This document shows, piece after piece, positions 140 through 11,527 of a stretch of DNA of 32,000 nucleotides. A model generated the notes under the pieces. That model saw nothing but the letters and a program-made list of their open reading frames with translations, ran no database searches and was not told where the DNA came from. Source of the DNA: an uncultured archaeon (GTDB taxonomy: Archaea > Asgardarchaeota > Jordiarchaeia > Jordiarchaeales > Jordiarchaeaceae); NCBI GenBank assembly GCA_964510585.1, contig CAZECW010000003.1:5523-37522 (forward strand). Direction: 5' to 3'. Numbering within the stretch: the first letter of the stretch is position 1; each line of letters begins with the position of its first letter. The translations under genes were made by a program, and so were the position numbers.

Positions 140-784
140 TTAGTGTACCAATTCAGTTTGCCTCACACTGGTAGCTGATCTCATCGGCAGAACTACCAAG
201 TCTGTTTCGCTCATTTGTTTTGCTAATTCATTGAATAGATTGGATGGGGTGATGTGTATGCAGGTTACTTCTTTTTCAGGCACTTCGCTGGCCAGGTCGA
301 TTAATTGTTTTATTATCCACCTGGCGGTTATCACAGTGTTCATGTATTCCTCTTTTCCGTCTGCTTCCTTCTCGTAGAATTCTATTAGGGATTTCAGGTT
401 TTGTGCCTTGTAGGTGCTCGCGTTTTTAGGGTTCTCAGAGAGGAATCTTTCCAATTCTTCCTTTAATTCTTCTATTTTTTCTCTTAGGTCATCTATTTCC
501 TGTTCCAAATATAGTCGGGCGTTTTGGGGTATTCCTAATCTGAAGAGTGGAACCCCTAACTCTCTGAATTCTTCCGTATTCACGCTCTGACCGTTAACGC
601 CAAACATGCAATCTTTGTCTGCAGTGATAAAGTCGGGATGATAGGTTAGAATAACGTTTAGTAAGGAGTTATCGGCCTGTTCGGTGAAGCAATCAGAATT
701 TTTGGAAGCCTGGGAATTTCCTTCTTCATACAATACCACCGTGAGGATTTTCCCACGCAATTTTTTAATTTCCAATTCTTCCAT
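140..784 (-). CDS. Hypothetical protein (214 aa), alpha/beta domain with a central coiled-coil insert
   Basis: ORF 140..820. ATG at 784 is preferred because GGAGG lies just upstream. Heptad-like segment LEQEIDDLREKIEELKEELERFL. No family recognised with confidence. Confidence 0.8.
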   Translation of the reverse strand: MEELEIKKLRGKILTVVLYEEGNSQASKNSDCFTEQADNSLLNVILTYHPDFITADKDCMFGVNGQSVNTEEFRELGVPLFRLGIPQNARLYLEQEIDDLREKIEELKEELERFLSENPKNASTYKAQNLKSLIEFYEKEADGKEEYMNTVITARWIIKQLIDLASEVPEKEVTCIHITPSNLFNELAKQMSETDLVVLPMRSATSVRQTELVH

Positions 785-835
785 CTTTTTCCTTCCTCCA
801 TTTATTCTCTGGTTAAACAATAGAAGGATGTTAGG

Positions 836-843
836 ATTTAAAA
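836..843 (-). promoter_or_regulatory. Candidate TATA box (TTTTAAAT) for the leftward operon
   Basis: AT-rich box about 50 nt upstream of the ATG at 784; position fits an archaeal promoter with a short leader. Confidence 0.4.
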
Positions 844-872
844 CTAATCTTAACTTGTCTTTTCTGAATTAT

Positions 873-888
873 GACAATTTTAATTGTC
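873..888. promoter_or_regulatory. Palindromic operator candidate GACAATT-TT-AATTGTC (GACAA-N6-TTGTC)
   Basis: Perfect 7-bp inverted repeat; same core and spacing as the site at 1028-1047. Confidence 0.65.
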
Positions 889-1027
889 TTGAAAATTGTT
901 GTATAGTTTGAATAAAAAGAGGAAAATTCATTTTTTTTGACAATTAAATTTTATTCCAAAAATTGTCTGGCAAGTCAATTTTATTAATCCAGTTACGATA
1001 GCCATTAAGACAATAAGAATGATGTAT

Positions 1028-1047
1028 TTGACAAATATAATTGTCAA
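1028..1047. promoter_or_regulatory. Palindromic operator candidate TTGACAA-ATATAA-TTGTCAA (GACAA-N6-TTGTC)
   Basis: Perfect 7-bp inverted repeat ending 16 nt upstream of the TATA candidate at 1064; matches 873-888. Confidence 0.65.
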
Positions 1048-1095: not shown

Positions 1096-3645
1096 TTGGT
1101 GAAAAAATATAACGCAGTGACACAGATGGACTTATATAATGTTTTAGGCCACCCTCTCAGAAGAAAAATCCTCCTATTATTAGAAAAAGAGGGTTACATG
1201 CAGTACTCAGATCTTCTCAAGGAGCTCAACATTGAAACAACGGGACAGTTGAATTTTCACCTCACAAAGCTGGGGAACCTAATTACCAAAGAGGGAAAGG
1301 CTTACAAGCTCTCGGAAGAAGGAAAAACGGTCATCAAAATAATGGAGTTAAATGAGAAGATTCTCTCAGGTGAAGAGATAGAAAGAATCGAGTCTCGAAA
1401 AACTGAGTTAAGCCGCGTGGGGATACTTATCTGTACCTGTGGTTCAGAGATTGAGCAGTCAATTAGTGTTGAGGCTTTGAAGAACCGTGTGTCTCGCATA
1501 AATAATGTGGTGTCCGTTGCGGTTTTTGATAATCTTTGTCAGGAGAAGAATCAGAAGAAGATTCAGAAATGGTTTAAGGACAATTTCATAAATAAGGTGG
1601 TTATTGCTGCCTGCAGTCCTCGTACGCACTCTCATATATTTAACCGCATATTTGAGAATCTTATACCCATAACAAACATTGATTTTGCTAATATTAGGGA
1701 GCAATTATGCTGGGTGAATTCTAAAAAGCCTGTTGAAGCCTTGGAAAAAGCGGGGTTACTCATTGAGGCTGCTGTGGAGAGGGTTATCCTTCAAAGAGAG
1801 ATTAAAACCAAAACTGTTGAGGTTCAAAAAAGCGTGGCTGTTATTGGTGGGGGCATTGCGGGTATGAATTTGGCTTTAAAGTTGGCGGAGGCCGGGTTGA
1901 AAGTTTATCTTATTGAAAAGTCGCCTACTCTGGGGGGGAAGGTTGCAAGGTGGAGCAAGATTGAGGGCGTCCTAGACTGCGCATCCTGTTTCCTCTCGGA
2001 ACAGATTCTGTATTTGGTGCAGGAGAAAAATATTGAGATTCTCACCAATACTGAAATTCTATCCGTTTCTGGAAATGCGGGGAACTTCACCATTGAATTG
2101 GTTCGCAAGCCACGTTACGTGGATGAAAATAAGTGTACTGGTTGTAAACGGTGTATGAGTATATGCACTATTACTAAGAAAAACGAGTATGAGTACGGTT
2201 TGGATGAGAGGAAGCTAATCTACATTCCCTTTGTTCAGGCCTATCCTTATGCGGCGACCATAGATGAGGAGGATATTGAGAAATGTAGAGAATGCCGGGT
2301 CTGTGAAAGAGCCTGTCTAAATAAAGCCATAAATCTGGATCAGAAGCCTACAACAATGACCATAAAGGTTGGGGCAAAAGTTCTGGCAATTGGCTCCGAC
2401 CTTTACCAAGACTTAAAGCTTTATAATCATAACCCGCGTTGGGACATCGTCACCTCTGCGGAGTTTGAGAGAATTCTTGCCTCTGACGGTCCCACACAGG
2501 GCAATCTTGTAAAACTTTCTGATGGCAAGGCGCCGCAAAAAATTGTAATTATTCAGGGTGTGGGCGATTACAGTCTTAGTTCCGATTACTGTTACATACT
2601 GTCCAGAAAGTATCTAGAAGCGATTCGGGAGAAGCTTCCCAGCTGCGAAGTTAAAGTTTTTATAGAGAACAGTAAGAGCGCTGCAAATAGGTTGGCACTC
2701 GCTAACCTGCCGGAAACTGTTCATACTGGCAAAGTATTAGGGATAAAAGTGGAGGGCGAAAGGAAAGTGATAAGTACTGAGAGGGGAGACTTTGAATCAG
2801 ACATGGTTATTCTAAACATAGGTATGGTTCCAAGTAGGGAGCTGGCTGAGCTTCGCAAAACTTTGGATTTCGCTTTTGATGATAAGGGTTTTATGTCCAA
2901 AGAGACACTGAGCTCAGGGATTTTTGGGTGTGGGACTGTTACCGGGCCTAAAGATTATCACACGGCTATAGCGGAATCTAATGAAGTAGCTCTTCAAATA
3001 ATTTCTCTATTATCAAGGGATTATTTACTTGCAGACATTAGCGGTATAGATATTGACTATGATAAGTGTGGTTTATGCGGTTTGTGTATGTCTGTCTGCC
3101 CCTTTAACGCTATATCCTGTGAAGACGACAGGATTACCATTGACGATTTCAAGTGTAAGGGCTGCGGAGTCTGCGTAAGCATTTGCCCCACAAAGGCATT
3201 GGAGATGAATGTGATAACAAGAGAAAAGATTCTCAGATCCATAGAAGTTTATAGCAAGTATAGCCACAAACCCAAAATTATGGCTTTTTGCTGTGAGCAT
3301 TGCGGGTATGCGGCGGCGGATGAGGCGGGCCTAAGGAAAATACAGTACCATCCCAATATTTTCGTTGAAATGGTTCCCTGTACTGGTAGAGTGGACACCG
3401 AGTTTATTTTAAAGGCGTTGGAAAAAGGATTCGATGGGGTGCTAGTTGTAGGGTGTAAGTATGGCTCATGCAGGTACATAGATGGAATCAACAAGTTGGA
3501 GAAAAAAATCAAAATACTGAAAGATGTGGGAATTCCCCAAATAGAGGATAGACTGGTTCTTTCATCGCTAAACGCGGTGGAAGGCTACAGGTTCGCAGAG
3601 ATAGTGAACCTAATGCAGAATAAATTGTCGGAGATGATGATGTGA
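1096..3645 (+). CDS. hdrA: Fusion protein: N-terminal winged HTH (ArsR-like) + HdrA-like FAD/Fe-S protein + C-terminal MvhD [2Fe-2S] domain
   Basis: HTH: LGHPLRRKILLLL...YSDLLKEL...GQLNFHLTKL. HdrA N-domain: ICTCG, AACSPRTH, ANIREQ. FAD motif GGGIAG, DCASC, inserted ferredoxin CTGCKRCMSIC/CRECRVCERAC, GPKD, second ferredoxin CGLCGLCMSVCP/CKGCGVCVSICP. MvhD: FCCEHCGYAAAD, PCTGRVD, GCKYGSCRY. Start uncertain (1096 TTG, 1099 GTG or 1126 ATG). Confidence 0.9.
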   Translation: MVKKYNAVTQMDLYNVLGHPLRRKILLLLEKEGYMQYSDLLKELNIETTGQLNFHLTKLGNLITKEGKAYKLSEEGKTVIKIMELNEKILSGEEIERIESRKTELSRVGILICTCGSEIEQSISVEALKNRVSRINNVVSVAVFDNLCQEKNQKKIQKWFKDNFINKVVIAACSPRTHSHIFNRIFENLIPITNIDFANIREQLCWVNSKKPVEALEKAGLLIEAAVERVILQREIKTKTVEVQKSVAVIGGGIAGMNLALKLAEAGLKVYLIEKSPTLGGKVARWSKIEGVLDCASCFLSEQILYLVQEKNIEILTNTEILSVSGNAGNFTIELVRKPRYVDENKCTGCKRCMSICTITKKNEYEYGLDERKLIYIPFVQAYPYAATIDEEDIEKCRECRVCERACLNKAINLDQKPTTMTIKVGAKVLAIGSDLYQDLKLYNHNPRWDIVTSAEFERILASDGPTQGNLVKLSDGKAPQKIVIIQGVGDYSLSSDYCYILSRKYLEAIREKLPSCEVKVFIENSKSAANRLALANLPETVHTGKVLGIKVEGERKVISTERGDFESDMVILNIGMVPSRELAELRKTLDFAFDDKGFMSKETLSSGIFGCGTVTGPKDYHTAIAESNEVALQIISLLSRDYLLADISGIDIDYDKCGLCGLCMSVCPFNAISCEDDRITIDDFKCKGCGVCVSICPTKALEMNVITREKILRSIEVYSKYSHKPKIMAFCCEHCGYAAADEAGLRKIQYHPNIFVEMVPCTGRVDTEFILKALEKGFDGVLVVGCKYGSCRYIDGINKLEKKIKILKDVGIPQIEDRLVLSSLNAVEGYRFAEIVNLMQNKLSEMMM

Positions 3646-4400
3646 AACTAAAATTTTCAGCAATCTCCCTTAACTCTTGCAACGGTTGCATCTCCACCCT
3701 TACCTGTCTAGATGTTTTCCTCAACCTTGTAAAATCCGCGGAAATAGTATACTTCCCCTTTGTTGAGGACTCCTACCCCGCCACAATAAAGGAAGACGAA
3801 GAACTAAAATATTCTGACGTTACCCTTGTTGAGGGATGTGTTACCCAGAAGGATGAAGAAATATTACTGAAAAAGCTGCGAAAAGCATCCAAAAAAATAA
3901 TTGCACTCGGCGCCTGCGCTATGTTTGGGGGGATAGAAAGCCTATCACAGAATGCTCGAAGGGACCCTCTCTCTAAAATCATAGAAATCGATGGATGTAT
4001 ACCGGGTTGCCCCCCACCTGAAAATGTTCTGGGAGCATCTATACTTTCACTAATTGAGGGCAGGAATCTTCCCGAAGCAAGCAGGAATCTCTGTGCAGTT
4101 TGCGATTTGAGGCCCAAACTGGAAAAATTCAAAACAATCCGTATAGAGAAATTACAACCCCAAAAGTTTCCCACCAGCTGTTTCCTCGACGAAAACGTGC
4201 TCTGTTTAGGTCCGGTGACCCGTGAAGGATGCGATGCAAAGTGTATCAAAGTGGGGCTGCCCTGTGAGGGGTGTATGGGGCCTCCCAACGGTTTAGACTA
4301 TACTGCTAATGTAATCAACTTCCTCTCAACACTGGAATTATCAGAAAAGTTGAGAACTTATGAAGGAATTATTTTTAGGCTTCGCCGCCCAAGGACGTGA
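3642..4400 (+). CDS. mvhG: [NiFe] hydrogenase small subunit, MvhG/group 3 type
   Basis: SCNGC, EG, GACAMFGG, IPGCPP, CAVC, CFL, CLGPVTREGCDAKC, PCEGCMG; no Tat leader. GTG start overlaps the upstream TGA. Confidence 0.88.
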   Translation: MKLKFSAISLNSCNGCISTLTCLDVFLNLVKSAEIVYFPFVEDSYPATIKEDEELKYSDVTLVEGCVTQKDEEILLKKLRKASKKIIALGACAMFGGIESLSQNARRDPLSKIIEIDGCIPGCPPPENVLGASILSLIEGRNLPEASRNLCAVCDLRPKLEKFKTIRIEKLQPQKFPTSCFLDENVLCLGPVTREGCDAKCIKVGLPCEGCMGPPNGLDYTANVINFLSTLELSEKLRTYEGIIFRLRRPRT

Positions 4401-4406
4401 AATGGA

Positions 4407-5738
4407 ATGAAGAAAATTATTGAACCGGTTACAAGAATTGAGGGACACGGGAAAATAACAGTATACCTTAATGATAAGGAAGTCTCCAACGCTAATTTTG
4501 ACATGTATCTACCTCGAGGATTCGAAAAAATTTTAGTGGGAAAATTGGTGGAAGATGTTCCCAGAATCACATCCCGAATATGTGGACTCTGCTCCTCAGC
4601 ACACGCAATAGCAGCCTGCAAAGCATTGGAAAAAATATATGACGTTACCCCATCTAAATCCTCCATTCTTATGAGAAAACTCCTCCTTGCCGGAGAGCTT
4701 ATAAGATCCCATGCATTGCACTTCTTTTACTTTGCACTTCCCGACCTAAAAGCATTGATAGAAAATGATTATGAAAGGTATAGTGTCCAACAGTTCTCAA
4801 AAATAGAAACAGACCTAGTTGAAAAATTGTTCAGAGTAATTAGAATTGGAAATGAGCTCCTAGACCGCATTGGGGGAAGGGTACCCCACCCAGTAACCAG
4901 CGTAGTGGGCGGAATCTCTAAAAAATTAACAGAAAAAGAAGTGGTAGGACTACAGTCTAACCTTAGAAGAGGCGCCAGCACAGTGAGAGGAATAATAGAG
5001 AAACTATTAGAGTACATGGGTAAGATTGGTGAGCCGCAAGAATTCTTCAACATGGACGAAACAGCATTTATGGCACTAAATGAAGGCGGCAACTTCAACC
5101 TATATGAAGGAAAACTCCGCATCACCAAAGAAAAAAAGATTCTGGCAGACTTCGAACCAGAACAATACACCAAATACATAGAAATTGAGAAAAAATCACA
5201 GGGAATCCAAATTAAACTTAACGGAGAAAAGCTAGTATTAACCGGGCCCATGGCCAGAAACCAAATAATCGAGAGATACGGGGCCTACGAAGTACACAGC
5301 TTGATGGAAGAAGTGCCCACCAGCTGGAAGGAAAGCCTTCTTTACTCAAACTTTCTCAGACTCATAGAAATACTTGCCTCGATATACGATGCAATACTCA
5401 TACTCAACGAGCCAGAACTAATGGAAGAACGAGAACTTCCCCAACTCAACAAAATCGCCACACCAATAGGCATCGGAGTGGTAGAAGCACCCAGAGGAAC
5501 ACTAATACACCAGTACAAAGTAAACACTAAAAACACAGTTGAATCAGCAACCATCATCACCCCCACAGAACTCAACCTCCCCACCATCAACCAAAAATTA
5601 CTAGAAACATGCAGAGACAGCTACCAAAACACACAAAACATAGAGAAACTAAAAGAAAACGCAAAAAGAGTCATAAGAACATTCGACCCCTGCGTCTCAT
5701 GCGCAACCCACCTAATCGTCAAAATAATCCACCAATAA
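4407..5738 (+). CDS. mvhA: [NiFe] hydrogenase large subunit, MvhA/group 3c-like
   Basis: TRIEGHG, L1 RICGLCSSAH, EAPRGTLIH, L2 DPCVSCATH plus an 8-aa C-terminal extension. The subgroup call rests on the adjacent MvhD and HdrA domains. Confidence 0.9.
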   Translation: MKKIIEPVTRIEGHGKITVYLNDKEVSNANFDMYLPRGFEKILVGKLVEDVPRITSRICGLCSSAHAIAACKALEKIYDVTPSKSSILMRKLLLAGELIRSHALHFFYFALPDLKALIENDYERYSVQQFSKIETDLVEKLFRVIRIGNELLDRIGGRVPHPVTSVVGGISKKLTEKEVVGLQSNLRRGASTVRGIIEKLLEYMGKIGEPQEFFNMDETAFMALNEGGNFNLYEGKLRITKEKKILADFEPEQYTKYIEIEKKSQGIQIKLNGEKLVLTGPMARNQIIERYGAYEVHSLMEEVPTSWKESLLYSNFLRLIEILASIYDAILILNEPELMEERELPQLNKIATPIGIGVVEAPRGTLIHQYKVNTKNTVESATIITPTELNLPTINQKLLETCRDSYQNTQNIEKLKENAKRVIRTFDPCVSCATHLIVKIIHQ

Positions 5739-8558: not shown

Positions 8559-11264
8559 TTATGTTGGGAAGGCTGTTTTTATTTCTTCGTAGAGTTCGGG
8601 GAAGCTGTTTAACCATTCTTTTCTTTCTTTTTTGAGTTGTTGAACCATTTCTTCTATTTGCTCAATGCTGTACCACCTTTCTAGTTTAAATTTTTCCATG
8701 TCTACGCCTTCCACCTCTTTGGGCACTAATGTGCCGAAGTATGGTTCGGGTATCCACTCTATGTTGTTTCTGGCTATGCCTCGGATTATGGAGGCCATTT
8801 CTTTTATCTGGATTCGTTCCACTTTTCTCTTAATTATGCTTATTCCTTCTTCATTTACTTCTCTAAGTTCTCCCACTCCACCGGTGTTTATAAGGTAGCA
8901 CTGCACCTTGTCTCCCAGTCCTTTTAGTATTTCGTAGAACCTGTTTCCCTCTTGGCCTTTGCTTCCCACTATGAAGGGATTTGTTCCTACTTCGCGTACT
9001 GACTGTCCTGCTCTTTTGGGGTCGCTTCCCGAACTTTCAATTGATTCTCCAAGCATGAATGCGGCTGCGGCTTGTTCAATGGTTAGTTTGGATGCTATTG
9101 GTACTACGGTGTTTCTTCTGGTAATCATTAGGACTATTAGTCCGTCGACGTCTTTTAGGGGAGGGAGGTTAACTGAGGGGCTTTTGTACTTTCCAAAGTC
9201 GTCTCTCTGCATTATTCCGCGTCCGTTGCCTGTGAGTATGTCGCTTTCAAATAGCACGTTTCCCTTGTAGTCCACCATAACGTTTTCCAGTATAGCGCTG
9301 GGTTTGGTCACCGCATTGTAGATTAGGGGCTGTATTTCTGGGTTTAGGTCTTCTGTTTTTAGGTAGAATCCTCTCTCGGTTCCTAGGGCTGAGCCGTCTG
9401 GTCTTAGTGCTACGAAGTCGTCTTGTACTATTTCGATTCCCTCACCATCTGCTTCGTTAAGGTCGTGGGTGTGGCAGCTGTGGGTGGTTTTACCTGTTGC
9501 GGTGAGTCCGAATATTAGCGTATTGTACGTTTTTATTTTTCCCGTTTTGGCATCTCTTGCTCTTATGATTTTTGCTCCGGCGTGTAATCCGAGCATTCCC
9601 TGCTGTTTGGCGAACCACATGGCCATTCTCAAGAAGCCCTTTTTAGCCTCGCCGTAATAGTCGGTTCCCAGAATGAATGTTACTCCAATTTCTGGAAATA
9701 CTATTATTTGTCGGTCCTTTTCCTGCCATTCTGGAATGTAAACTATGTATAGGTGGGGGCCGTTATAGTTTTCTTTTGGGTCGAATAGTGTTTGGTTGAC
9801 CATGTGGGCCAGCCTAATCATTTCTCCCCTGTGTACGGAGACGTAGAGGGTGCATCTGGGTGTGAAGTAGGGGTTATCTCCCATGGTGCGGTCAGTGCAC
9901 ACAAATGGTGCGCTCTTAATGTATTGGAGGACGTCGCTCATTGTTTTGGGTAGGTTTTTCATAAGTTCCTTCTGTTTGGGGCTCATCTCGTATTGGACTA
10001 CTTCTGGGCTTCCCACGATTATGGTTAGGCCTGCGCTTCTGTTTTTCACGGTGGAGACGAAATTATAGTTGTTGAACTTTGTTTTGGTGCCATAGGCTTC
10101 CGCCATCTCCCTGATTTTTTGTTCTGATAGGTGTTTAACATTGCTTCTATTGTAGAGCTTTTCCACGGCTTGCCTTATTTCGTTTAGGTCTATTTGGGAG
10201 ATGATTTCGTCAATTTCGGCTTTTGCCCTCTCCTTTTCTTCTATTAATGGTTCGAGATATTCTTTGGTGGTAATTATTCTTCTTACTTCCTTTTGCATTT
10301 CCAAAAGGGGATGGGCTAAATTCAGGTAGTATACCGCTGCGAATTTGAAAATATTCTTGTAAAATTCAATTTCAAGCTTTTCTCGCTTACTGCTCCGTAC
10401 CATTAGGTAGGGATTGAAGAATGGCTGCTGGGAATGTGTGAGAATCTTTATGGCTTCCTGTGGGGTGAGACGCTTAGCAATTCTTGGATCCTTGCGATAA
10501 TTTACAAGTAGAAAAATGAGCTTAATACGGGTGGTGTCCACATATTTTTCATTTCCACCTATCCACCAAGGGTCGAGCATAAAGTGGTTATTTTCCTTTT
10601 TGCTTTTTTCGTATAGTGCCTGGAGTCTTGGATAAATTTTTATGAGTTCTTTTTTTAGGAAGAATTTTCTCTCAGAGACCGATGTAGATATGCGCCCCTT
10701 TTCTCCACCAAGTTGCTCCACATATATTATGTCGTCTGAGTGTATTCTGGCTCTATCCATCTCTAAAAGGAGGAATGCATTTGTGCTGACTCCCCGCCCA
10801 GTTTCACCCATGAAGGCTACGCCCTCACCATTAATGTCTACCAGACTACCCCTCAGAAAGTTTAATCTCTCCTGTTCCTCGCAGACATCAGCAACAATCC
10901 CTAGGGCTAATGCCCGAACAAATTCATAGTTTCCAATATTGAATACTATTCCTGTTTTGGTTTCAGAGTTGTAATATATTCCGGGAGGCTCGTCGTAAAG
11001 TCCAGTAGCTGCATATATTACTCCGTGGGGGCGAAGGTTGCGGTCTATGGCTGCGGGGAACCAGTTTTCTCTCCAAAAATCATCTAAATGGGGTTCGTTG
11101 GTTCTCAATTGAATTATGTAGCCGTTTATGTTTGCGTTCCAAACGTAAATAGAATCGTAACCCATATGCCTCTCTGCTTTTTGAACCAATTCTTCCCTTT
11201 TCTCACGAGAGATTCCTACGTCGATAACGCCTTTCTTTCCGGGAACCTGCTCCATTTCAACCAT
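8559..11264 (-). CDS. pckA: Phosphoenolpyruvate carboxykinase (ATP-type) with an extra N-terminal HPr-kinase/PEPCK-like domain
   Basis: C-terminal part: GTDYYGEAKKG, GLHAGAK, P-loop FGLTATGKTT, QDD, TERGFYLKT, ENV, NGR, YLINTG. Start 11264 chosen from GAGGAG spacing (ORF is open from 11306). Confidence 0.85.
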   Translation of the reverse strand: MVEMEQVPGKKGVIDVGISREKREELVQKAERHMGYDSIYVWNANINGYIIQLRTNEPHLDDFWRENWFPAAIDRNLRPHGVIYAATGLYDEPPGIYYNSETKTGIVFNIGNYEFVRALALGIVADVCEEQERLNFLRGSLVDINGEGVAFMGETGRGVSTNAFLLLEMDRARIHSDDIIYVEQLGGEKGRISTSVSERKFFLKKELIKIYPRLQALYEKSKKENNHFMLDPWWIGGNEKYVDTTRIKLIFLLVNYRKDPRIAKRLTPQEAIKILTHSQQPFFNPYLMVRSSKREKLEIEFYKNIFKFAAVYYLNLAHPLLEMQKEVRRIITTKEYLEPLIEEKERAKAEIDEIISQIDLNEIRQAVEKLYNRSNVKHLSEQKIREMAEAYGTKTKFNNYNFVSTVKNRSAGLTIIVGSPEVVQYEMSPKQKELMKNLPKTMSDVLQYIKSAPFVCTDRTMGDNPYFTPRCTLYVSVHRGEMIRLAHMVNQTLFDPKENYNGPHLYIVYIPEWQEKDRQIIVFPEIGVTFILGTDYYGEAKKGFLRMAMWFAKQQGMLGLHAGAKIIRARDAKTGKIKTYNTLIFGLTATGKTTHSCHTHDLNEADGEGIEIVQDDFVALRPDGSALGTERGFYLKTEDLNPEIQPLIYNAVTKPSAILENVMVDYKGNVLFESDILTGNGRGIMQRDDFGKYKSPSVNLPPLKDVDGLIVLMITRRNTVVPIASKLTIEQAAAAFMLGESIESSGSDPKRAGQSVREVGTNPFIVGSKGQEGNRFYEILKGLGDKVQCYLINTGGVGELREVNEEGISIIKRKVERIQIKEMASIIRGIARNNIEWIPEPYFGTLVPKEVEGVDMEKFKLERWYSIEQIEEMVQQLKKERKEWLNSFPELYEEIKTAFPT

Positions 11265-11527
11265 TCTCATTACTCCTCGGACAGGACATCCTAGCCCACA
11301 AGTCAATACGTTTTTTTTCAGATACCAAGTTAACTACACCTTTTTATAGGTTTTCATTGTATGGCTGTTAGGGTCTCGAAGGTAGGCATTTATTTGTTAA
11401 AAATGATTCTAATTTACCGCCATTTTTATCTTTTTATGTTAAAATTAAGGTTTCGGGTATTATTTTTATACTTCTTTGTTCAATTCTAATATTGCCCTTG
11501 CAAAATTTTTCCAGTGACCCTAAAGGA

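Follow-up and report, generated by a model that had tools for sequence, protein, structure and literature searches.

This analysis concerns a 340-bp intergenic spacer (positions 785-1125) in a 32,000-nt stretch of DNA, hereafter the window, from the 3.78-Mb genome of an uncultured member of Ca. Jordarchaeia. The spacer separates two divergent genes, one of which encodes a winged helix-turn-helix (wHTH) domain joined to HdrA and MvhD at the head of a [NiFe] hydrogenase operon. It contains two copies of the gapped palindrome GACAA-N6-TTGTC, termed O1 and O2, as well as several half-sites, which are candidate binding sites of the adjacent wHTH domain. The features of the locus, in the numbering of the window, comprise:

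140-784, minus strand: first gene of the divergent operon, 214 amino acids (aa), ATG at 784, no significant Pfam match
834-843, minus strand: predicted TATA box of the divergent operon, GATTTAAAAC, reading TTTTAAAT on the minus strand; starts 59 nt before the ATG at 784; invariant
855-859, no strand: half-site TTGTC, conserved, 11 nt upstream of the minus-strand TATA-like box
873-888, no strand: predicted operator O1, GACAATTTTAATTGTC, GACAA-TTTTAA-TTGTC; 17.2 bits, second-best match in the genome to the position weight matrix (PWM) of the motif
939-945, no strand: half-site GACAATT (GACAA at 939-943), invariant in three genomes
963-967, no strand: pentamer TTGTC, reading TTATG in a relative whose fusion protein is 86% identical
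1009-1013, no strand: half-site GACAA, invariant in three genomes, 21 bp upstream of the left arm of O2
1028-1047 (core 1030-1045), no strand: predicted operator O2, TTGACAAATATAATTGTCAA, TTGACAA-ATATAA-TTGTCAA; 26.3 bits, best PWM match in the genome
1059-1073, plus strand: predicted TFB-recognition element (BRE) and TATA box of the fusion operon, GAAAATTTTTATTAA, composed of GAAAA-TTTTTATTAA; the TATA box starts 62 nt before the ATG at 1126; invariant
1126-3645, plus strand: wHTH-HdrA-MvhD fusion gene, 839 aa; Pfam DUF7347 plus FlpD, Fer4 and Pyr_redox
1126-1371, plus strand: wHTH domain of the fusion, aa 1-82; Pfam DUF7347 and AlphaFold2 (AF2) model
3642-4400, plus strand: MvhG-like [NiFe] hydrogenase small subunit; Pfam Oxidored_q6; start overlaps the stop codon of the fusion
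4407-5738, plus strand: MvhA-like [NiFe] hydrogenase large subunit; Pfam NiFeSe_Hases; RICGLC and DPCVSCATH motifs

The second gene of the divergent operon, here called the X-MtdB operon, lies just outside the window and encodes a protein of 560 aa, in which a domain of the 214-aa type is joined to an MtdB-like methylene-tetrahydromethanopterin dehydrogenase (Mpt_N, E=2e-30). The 214-aa protein and the N-terminal half of this 560-aa MtdB fusion (L108:3948-6306, upstream contig) are distant paralogs with 21-25% identity in tblastn, and no significant Pfam match was obtained for that N-terminal half; the two genes occur in synteny at about 30 Asgard loci.

Palindromes of the divergent control region

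The initial annotation had described two GACAA-N6-TTGTC palindromes with accompanying half-sites and had noticed no further full copy in the window. All of these coordinates are exact, and the exact pattern occurs twice only in the window (0.04 expected; none of 100 shuffles reaches two) and likewise twice only in the whole genome, namely as O1 and O2. With other spacer lengths between 0 and 12, GACAA and TTGTC are combined one to four times each genome-wide, so that the genome total lies within chance and the signal consists in the occurrence of both copies 157 bp apart in one spacer. In addition, the accumulation of eight GACAA/TTGTC pentamers in 200 bp is unique in the genome, where the next best window holds five (Poisson P=1.8e-9). 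A genome scan with the PWM derived from the orthologous sites yielded, after O2 and O1, a next match of 16.5 bits without a second arm, and the degenerate pattern with up to two mismatches was genome-wide no commoner than in shuffles. The genome-wide scan for GACAA-N6-TTGTC, which had been proposed in order to define a regulon, confines the pattern to this locus and reveals no wider regulon; the predicted regulon in this genome is a single divergent control region and not genome-wide.

O2, which begins 98 nt before the fusion ATG, fits the phylum-wide consensus TTGAYAA-N6-TTRTCAA perfectly. In this motif, the 7-bp arms TTGAYAA and TTRTCAA flank a 6-bp AT-rich spacer, and the centres of GACAA and TTGTC are 11 bp apart, which corresponds to approximately one helical turn. 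Like the Rex (TTGTGAA-N4-TTCACAA) and SurR (GTT-N3-AAC) boxes, it is a palindrome placed before hydrogenase and energy genes in a redox-related context. Nevertheless, its TTGAYAA arms and 6-bp AT-rich spacer set it apart from both, as had been stated initially: arms and spacer length differ from those of Rex, and GTT-N3-AAC is no part of the conserved core.

For an assessment within the genus, the spacer of the window was aligned with the corresponding regions of two congeners that encode fusion proteins of 97% and 86% identity. Of the eight pentamers, seven remain unchanged in this alignment, compared with 21% of background 5-mers (P=1e-4), at an identity outside the pentamers of 65% in the 86% relative. 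The arms of O1 and O2 are invariant in the three genomes and both spacers vary. The half-sites at 855-859, 939-943 and 1009-1013 are conserved, whereas the pentamer at 963-967, which had been counted with them, is not conserved and is probably non-functional. In the congener G004, exactly two sites exist, both at the fusion locus, while two of five congeners (G003 and G005, one of them a closed genome) yielded neither the fusion nor the MtdB operon nor the paired sites with AT spacers seen at this locus. The divergent unit acts like an accessory module within the genus.

A further congener, G002, features two more exact GACAA-N6-TTGTC palindromes with AT spacers (C415:7553-7568 and C409:1422-1437), neither of which occurs in the genome of the window. 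One precedes a proteasome-alpha/SBDS/Rrp4 operon by 99 nt, and the other falls into a gap of 770 bp without coding sequence; as they are not conserved in the present genome, their membership in the regulon is unproven.

Conservation across Asgard archaea

The wHTH-HdrA-MvhD fusion is present in 12 of 61 sampled relatives, and a species-level genome collection contains about 70 full-length fusion loci with Loki-, Thor-, Hermod-, Hod-, Hel-, Sif- and Borrarchaeal labels, plus one assigned to Bathyarchaeota. Two typical Asgard wHTH-HdrA loci, L036 (DATKTP010000251.1) and L061 (DATKTW010000111.1), are filed under bacterial metagenome-assembled genomes (Deferrimicrobium sp. and Nanopelagicaceae bacterium, respectively), which is probably a binning error.

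In an enumeration that does not presuppose the motif, every combination of a 5-mer, a spacer and the reverse complement was counted in the 350 nt upstream of 70 orthologs. The top-ranked palindrome was GATAA-N6-TTATC (14 loci versus 0.17 expected), followed by its shifted forms TGATA-N8, TTGAT-N10 and TTTGA-N12 and by GACAA-N6-TTGTC itself (5 loci versus 0.005 expected). When PWM matches of at least 17 bits are regarded as strong sites, 83 of them fall into 33.9 kb of operon promoter DNA, compared with 4 in the other 340 kb of these loci and 0.2 on average after shuffling of the promoter DNA, and at least one occurs in 57 of the 69 usable loci. The PWM was trained on the sites that it counts, which renders the positive count somewhat circular; the controls and the enumeration are not circular. 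Two of the outcomes that the initial annotation had named as speaking against its operator, namely absence upstream of orthologous fusions and equal frequency in shuffled AT-rich DNA, are contradicted by these figures.

The arrangement of the sites follows recurrent rules. The proximal site precedes the leading gene of the operon by 91-98 nt in many orthologs and by 105 to about 350 nt in some; in a large subgroup, in which an FrhB-like gene is inserted ahead of the fusion, the sites precede the FrhB-like gene. A distal second site lies 157 bp further upstream in Jordarchaeia and 166-169 bp in many others, and weaker sites are often situated 21, 24 or 29 bp from strong ones, of which the tandem spacing of 21 bp recurs in orthologs. 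General helical phasing of the site pair was considered and rejected: distances of 157 bp (15.0 turns) and 168 bp (16.0 turns) would fit, but other lineages show 119, 137 or 143 bp. In the Sif/Borr-type orthologs, in L088 and L089 and in the Bathyarchaeota ortholog, half-site-like words without a canonical palindrome were found, these sequences being too few to define an alternative motif. In five AT-rich relatives, the pattern with one mismatch occurs 14-32 times versus 10-20 times in the control; these counts are only slightly above control and provide no evidence for a large regulon there.

The choice of C or T in the half-sites is independent between the two arms (35 mixed CT, 17 TT and 12 CC), which fits two protein subunits that each read one half-site and argues against an RNA stem.

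The distribution of the motif parallels that of the fusion and not that of the target genes. Around HdrA homologs devoid of the HTH (25 loci, 18 of them from Asgard archaea, 126 kb), no match of at least 14 bits was obtained, and in seven genomes with an X-MtdB operon, in which the fusion was not found by the query, no site of at least 12 bits exists within 1.5 kb. The fusion operon and the X-MtdB operon form a conserved divergent pair at about 30 of the 70 loci. In six FrhB-first genomes, the MtdB operon resides on another contig or about 10 kb away, and the first gene of this operon is still preceded by one or two sites with 21-27 bits; paired sites at such non-adjacent MtdB operons are 106-107 bp apart. 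To judge from these comparisons, the distribution is what a trans-acting factor co-occurring with the fusion would produce. The loci compared show the motif to be a conserved, putatively regulatory cis-element of two or three transcription units, i.e. the hydrogenase/HdrA operon, the X-MtdB operon and, in some lineages, a gene for a selenocysteine-containing (Sec) HdrA, and they show it only in genomes that encode a wHTH-bearing HdrA.

The Sec-HdrA gene belongs to the Loki-type FrhB-first loci (L037-L042, L046-L048, L051, L057, L058, L076, L084 and L098), where the FrhB-like gene encodes about 385 aa. In this subgroup, a second HdrA with an in-frame TGA, probably encoding selenocysteine, diverges from the same operator region, and the MtdB operon is about 10 kb away. 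Many HdrA-like genes in the genomes sampled (e.g. G005:C1:6039-8360 and G000:C150:27276-29159) contain one to four in-frame TGA codons, and since selenoprotein HdrA is known from Asgard archaea, these codons are consistent with it.

The fusion protein and its DNA-binding domain

The initial annotation had placed the HTH at about aa 11-90, and the list of open reading frames lets the gene begin at a TTG at 1096. This numbering has to be revised: the fusion starts at the ATG at 1126 (MDLYNVLGHP...) and the HTH covers aa 1-82, because M(D/E)(I/L)Y forms the N-terminus of all orthologs and the sequence upstream of it is not in frame in the 86%-identity relative. Some orthologs display ATA (L067, L068, L078 and L097) or ACG (L081, L082 and L089) at the codon aligned with this start and no in-frame ATG just upstream; these may be unusual starts or sequencing errors. 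The domain is followed by a linker at about aa 83-96 with low confidence in the AF2 model, by HdrA from about aa 97 and by MvhD/FlpD at aa 714-836. The alignments to solved HdrA chains (5ODC, 8RVU and others) begin at residues 93-97 of the fusion and at residues 2-9 of the chains themselves, and solved MvhD chains align to residues 714-836, so that the HTH and a short linker are prepended to a complete HdrA-MvhD.

With respect to its sequence profile, the domain matches DUF7347 (PF24038) with 44.5 bits at a cut-off of 27.6, at aa 12-82 of the longer open reading frame (ORF). The AF2 model of aa 1-110 (mean pLDDT 85.5) comprises helices a1 and a2, a short strand, a3, a recognition helix at 39-52, a beta-hairpin wing and a helix at 64-81, while residues 82-110 are of low confidence. 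Foldseek places it next to the dimeric wHTH proteins YodB, QsrR, ArsR, CadC, HlyU, NolR, SrnR and archaeal AspA, with TM scores of 0.5-0.76 at weak E values (2e-3 or worse), and the best sequence match in the PDB, ArsR of Archaeoglobus fulgidus (1y0u), is weak as well (E=0.01). By profile and modelled fold, the domain is an ArsR/SmtB-like wHTH. It shares the fold order a1-a2-a3-aR-wing-a5 with the ArsR/SmtB and YodB/QsrR/HxlR-type repressors, which likewise use AT-rich inverted repeats near promoters. These repressors, however, are stand-alone sensors of about 100 aa that respond to metals, quinones or thiols, whereas the present domain is tethered to an enzyme; no metal- or thiol-sensing site was identified in the wHTH of the fusion. 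No other DNA-binding domain was detected among the ORFs scanned in the window and the upstream contig, nor does the genome contain a close paralog of the wHTH (best other match E=0.1). A homodimer prediction for two wHTH copies (aa 1-95) gave a median score of 0.41, the mark being 0.42.

Differences in the recognition helix are paralleled by differences in the sites. Nearly all orthologs whose recognition helix starts with TGQLNFH possess canonical sites, the exceptions being L033 and L036; for two others, upstream sequence is lacking. Where K, I, N or R occupies the position of the Q, sites are absent or weak. This covariation would agree with a domain that reads the motif.

The enzyme part of the fusion deviates from solved HdrA as well. 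In the HdrA core of the fusion clade (window 2554-2620, aa about 477-498), QGVGDY...YCYILS is found in place of QCVGSR...CSNVCC, i.e. three of the four cysteines of a cluster motif in the thioredoxin-reductase-like domain are gone, a loss that recurs in the consensus of 11 fusion orthologs. Given these missing cysteines at the flavin-proximal cluster, the hydrogenase complex may have a sensing role.

Elsewhere in the window, positions 8559-11306 of the minus strand encode an ATP-dependent phosphoenolpyruvate carboxykinase of 915 aa, in which the Pfam match covers only aa 385-870 and the N-terminal extension of about 380 residues has no Pfam match.

Regulatory reading, alternatives and significance

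We interpret O1, O2 and the conserved half-sites as predicted operators of the fusion's own ArsR-like wHTH, which would make the fusion a trigger enzyme that co-regulates hydrogenase and one-carbon (C1) genes, and assign to this reading a probability of about 0.75. As in trigger enzymes, enzyme and DNA-binding domain reside in one polypeptide, a fusion conserved in about 70 Asgard loci, and candidate operators occur at its own promoter as well as at the pathway operon X-MtdB, be it linked or unlinked. As in operators of dimeric wHTH proteins, the half-sites form an inverted repeat about one turn apart at a promoter location conserved above background. The assignment of the palindromes to the adjacent wHTH, already made in the initial annotation, is favoured by upstream conservation, the shuffle control and the co-occurrence with the fusion; its activator component is not settled by the site positions.

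Several points weigh against this reading. Every link between domain and motif is a correlation, and a strong site is seen in only 6 of 12 protein clusters (75% identity), most loci belonging to one cluster. Within the genus, the divergent unit is either present or absent as a whole, and this comparison therefore does not distinguish the HTH from other possible causes. Lineages without the motif are at the same time those with the greatest overall divergence, so that the covariation of the recognition helix is confounded with phylogeny. Moreover, the position of the sites relative to the TATA candidates differs between lineages.

In the mechanism that we propose, two wHTH domains, each hanging on the low-confidence linker of about 15 residues, would bind the two half-sites, whose centres are spaced by 11 bp and which thus lie on the same face of the DNA. 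Solved Hdr (heterodisulfide reductase) complexes contain HdrA as a dimer. The fusion would thereby autoregulate the hydrogenase operon and co-regulate the C1-pathway (X-MtdB) operon, after the manner of PutA and RbkR, and DNA binding would probably respond to the redox, H2 or assembly state of the enzyme.

The position of the sites relative to the promoters bears on the sign of this regulation. The TATA candidates of the initial annotation (836-843 and 1064-1073) are reasonable, as they are invariant within the genus and located at the modal TATA-to-ATG distance: TATA-like hexamers are most frequent at -60 to -56 from the ATG, as counted over 309 genes of this genome that combine a Shine-Dalgarno sequence with AT-rich upstream DNA. 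Two hot-spring runs labelled metatranscriptomic, which are probably DNA, yielded only contigs of a 90-95% relative, which say nothing about transcription starts. The full sites had been located upstream of the TATA boxes, and in this genome they are indeed found 16-30 bp upstream of the conserved boxes. In 21 of the 57 orthologous loci, by contrast, the proximal site directly adjoins a canonical TTTATATA box at its 5' edge and would hence cover positions -20 to +1; 21 bp further downstream, a weaker site coincides in part with another TATA-like word, TTTATCAA, about 60 nt before the ATG. An abutting box combined with an overlapping weak site is, as far as these predicted elements can tell, a repressor geometry. 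Owing to this geometry and to a fold family of mostly repressors, repression that is relieved by a redox, H2 or assembly signal appears to be the most likely sign, held with slightly better than even confidence.

Activation from the upstream position in this genome is a tentative alternative that we consider rather unlikely. The palindromes would then be upstream activating sequences, from which wHTH-HdrA recruits TBP and TFB to both divergent promoters upon sensing H2 or reductant. Archaeal regulators bound upstream of BRE/TATA often activate, e.g. Ptr2, TrmBL1 and SurR, which counts for this alternative, as does the placement of both full sites between outward-facing invariant TATA-like boxes that keep the modal distance from their ATG. 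The same placement upstream of a TATA-like box is seen in many lineages on the MtdB side, commonly in the order full palindrome, weak or half-site (TTGTCAA), 4-11 nt, TATA-like box, an order that the window repeats with 873-888, 855-859 and 834-843. Activation is opposed by the abutting TTTATATA boxes and overlapped TATA-like elements described above, by the mostly repressing structural neighbours of ArsR/YodB type, and by the conserved half-site at 855-859 beside the BRE position. The remaining probability falls to dual action according to site position.

Still less probable is that the palindromes constitute a genuine operator of a separate transcription factor encoded elsewhere, while the wHTH of HdrA serves other DNA targets or protein contacts. 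The correlational nature of the link between fusion and motif leaves room for such a factor, archaeal genomes encode many wHTH regulators, and weak DUF7347-like matches exist elsewhere in this genome (26 bits, below the cut-off). On the other hand, the domain has no close paralog there, the motif occurs at a single locus of this genome, and it is limited to genomes that contain the fusion and missing at MtdB operons where the fusion was not found. A separate factor that always co-occurs with the fusion and yet is never linked to it would be the less parsimonious assumption. The 214-aa divergent protein was considered as a binder and rejected, for the motif persists where its gene is not adjacent and the Sec-HdrA gene diverges instead.

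That the palindromes are no protein sites at all, but RNA leader hairpins, remnants of mobile-element inverted repeats, origin-recognition boxes or products of chance, is very improbable: although the region is AT-rich and short palindromes with AT spacers do arise by chance (one to four copies per spacer length genome-wide), chance is excluded by the window shuffles, the 70-locus enumeration, the strong-site controls, the genus invariance and the pentamer cluster; RNA hairpins are opposed by arms that do not co-vary, GACAA...TTATC with its C-A mismatch in RNA being the commonest kind of combination, by the failure of Rfam to find anything in the whole window and by the lack of terminator-like hairpins in a sigma-70/terminator scan that is itself uninformative for an archaeon; and transposon ends or replication origins do not accord with a motif that holds its place relative to the promoters of two specific operons phylum-wide.

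The reading of the palindromes as operators of the enzyme-borne domain has counterparts among known regulators. The archaeal riboflavin kinase/regulator RbkR combines an enzyme with a wHTH in one polypeptide, and its DNA binding is tuned by CTP and FMN; according to the available parts of this source, it recognizes palindromes upstream of its own and pathway genes, which were inferred by comparative genomics and vary in motif between lineages (PMC5397151), as in the present case. RbkR, however, is a small soluble kinase with proven binding and structure, whereas the fusion is a large flavo-iron-sulfur subunit of a multi-subunit hydrogenase, for which the signal would be redox or H2. PutA of E. 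coli and Salmonella is a flavoenzyme with an N-terminal DNA-binding domain and several operators in a long divergent control region, from which it is released upon flavin reduction. The fusion likewise carries its DNA-binding domain at the N-terminus of a flavoenzyme, with sites between its own gene and a divergent partner. In contrast to the bacterial PutA, a single polypeptide that binds GTTGCA sites via a ribbon-helix-helix and attaches to the membrane when reduced, the present system features an ArsR-like domain, a 20-bp palindrome and a hydrogenase complex. In the HoxBC-HoxJ-HoxA system of Cupriavidus/Ralstonia, an H2-sensing regulatory hydrogenase signals via a histidine kinase and a response regulator. 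Both systems couple a [NiFe] hydrogenase module to transcriptional control of hydrogenase genes, but here the DNA-binding domain is located directly on the hydrogenase-associated subunit.

In Helarchaeota, a three-gene cluster was proposed as a novel redox complex, and from the accessible portions of that paper it appears to be the same as the cluster of fusion, MvhG and MvhA type; these portions mention neither an N-terminal HTH nor an operator (Seitz et al. 2019, PMC6478937). Locus L059 of the present collection derives from Hel_GB_B. Full-text literature searches for an HTH-bearing HdrA, for DUF7347 and for a TTGAYAA-N6-TTRTCAA operator returned no paper. Should the enzyme-borne domain bind these sites, the fusion would, to our knowledge, be the first subunit of a hydrogenase or heterodisulfide reductase with a second function as transcription factor, and the principle of trigger enzymes would then also apply to a redox complex of several subunits.

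Asgard archaea are the closest prokaryotic relatives of eukaryotes, little is known of their gene regulation, and hydrogen metabolism is central to models of syntrophy. The defined 20-bp operator and its candidate regulator provide a testable circuit, amenable to experiments without a cultured host, in which a small regulon would link the machinery of H2 and electron bifurcation to the methyl branch of the Wood-Ljungdahl pathway in many Asgard lineages. We see an even chance that the Mvh-type [NiFe] hydrogenase complex is itself the transcription factor, i.e. that it reads H2 or redox state, binds TTGAYAA-N6-TTRTCAA directly and sets the expression of hydrogenase, the second, Sec-containing HdrA and MtdB, possibly with an HdrA core specialised for sensing. 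This would constitute a one-complex circuit from H2 to genes that is ancestral to much of the phylum.

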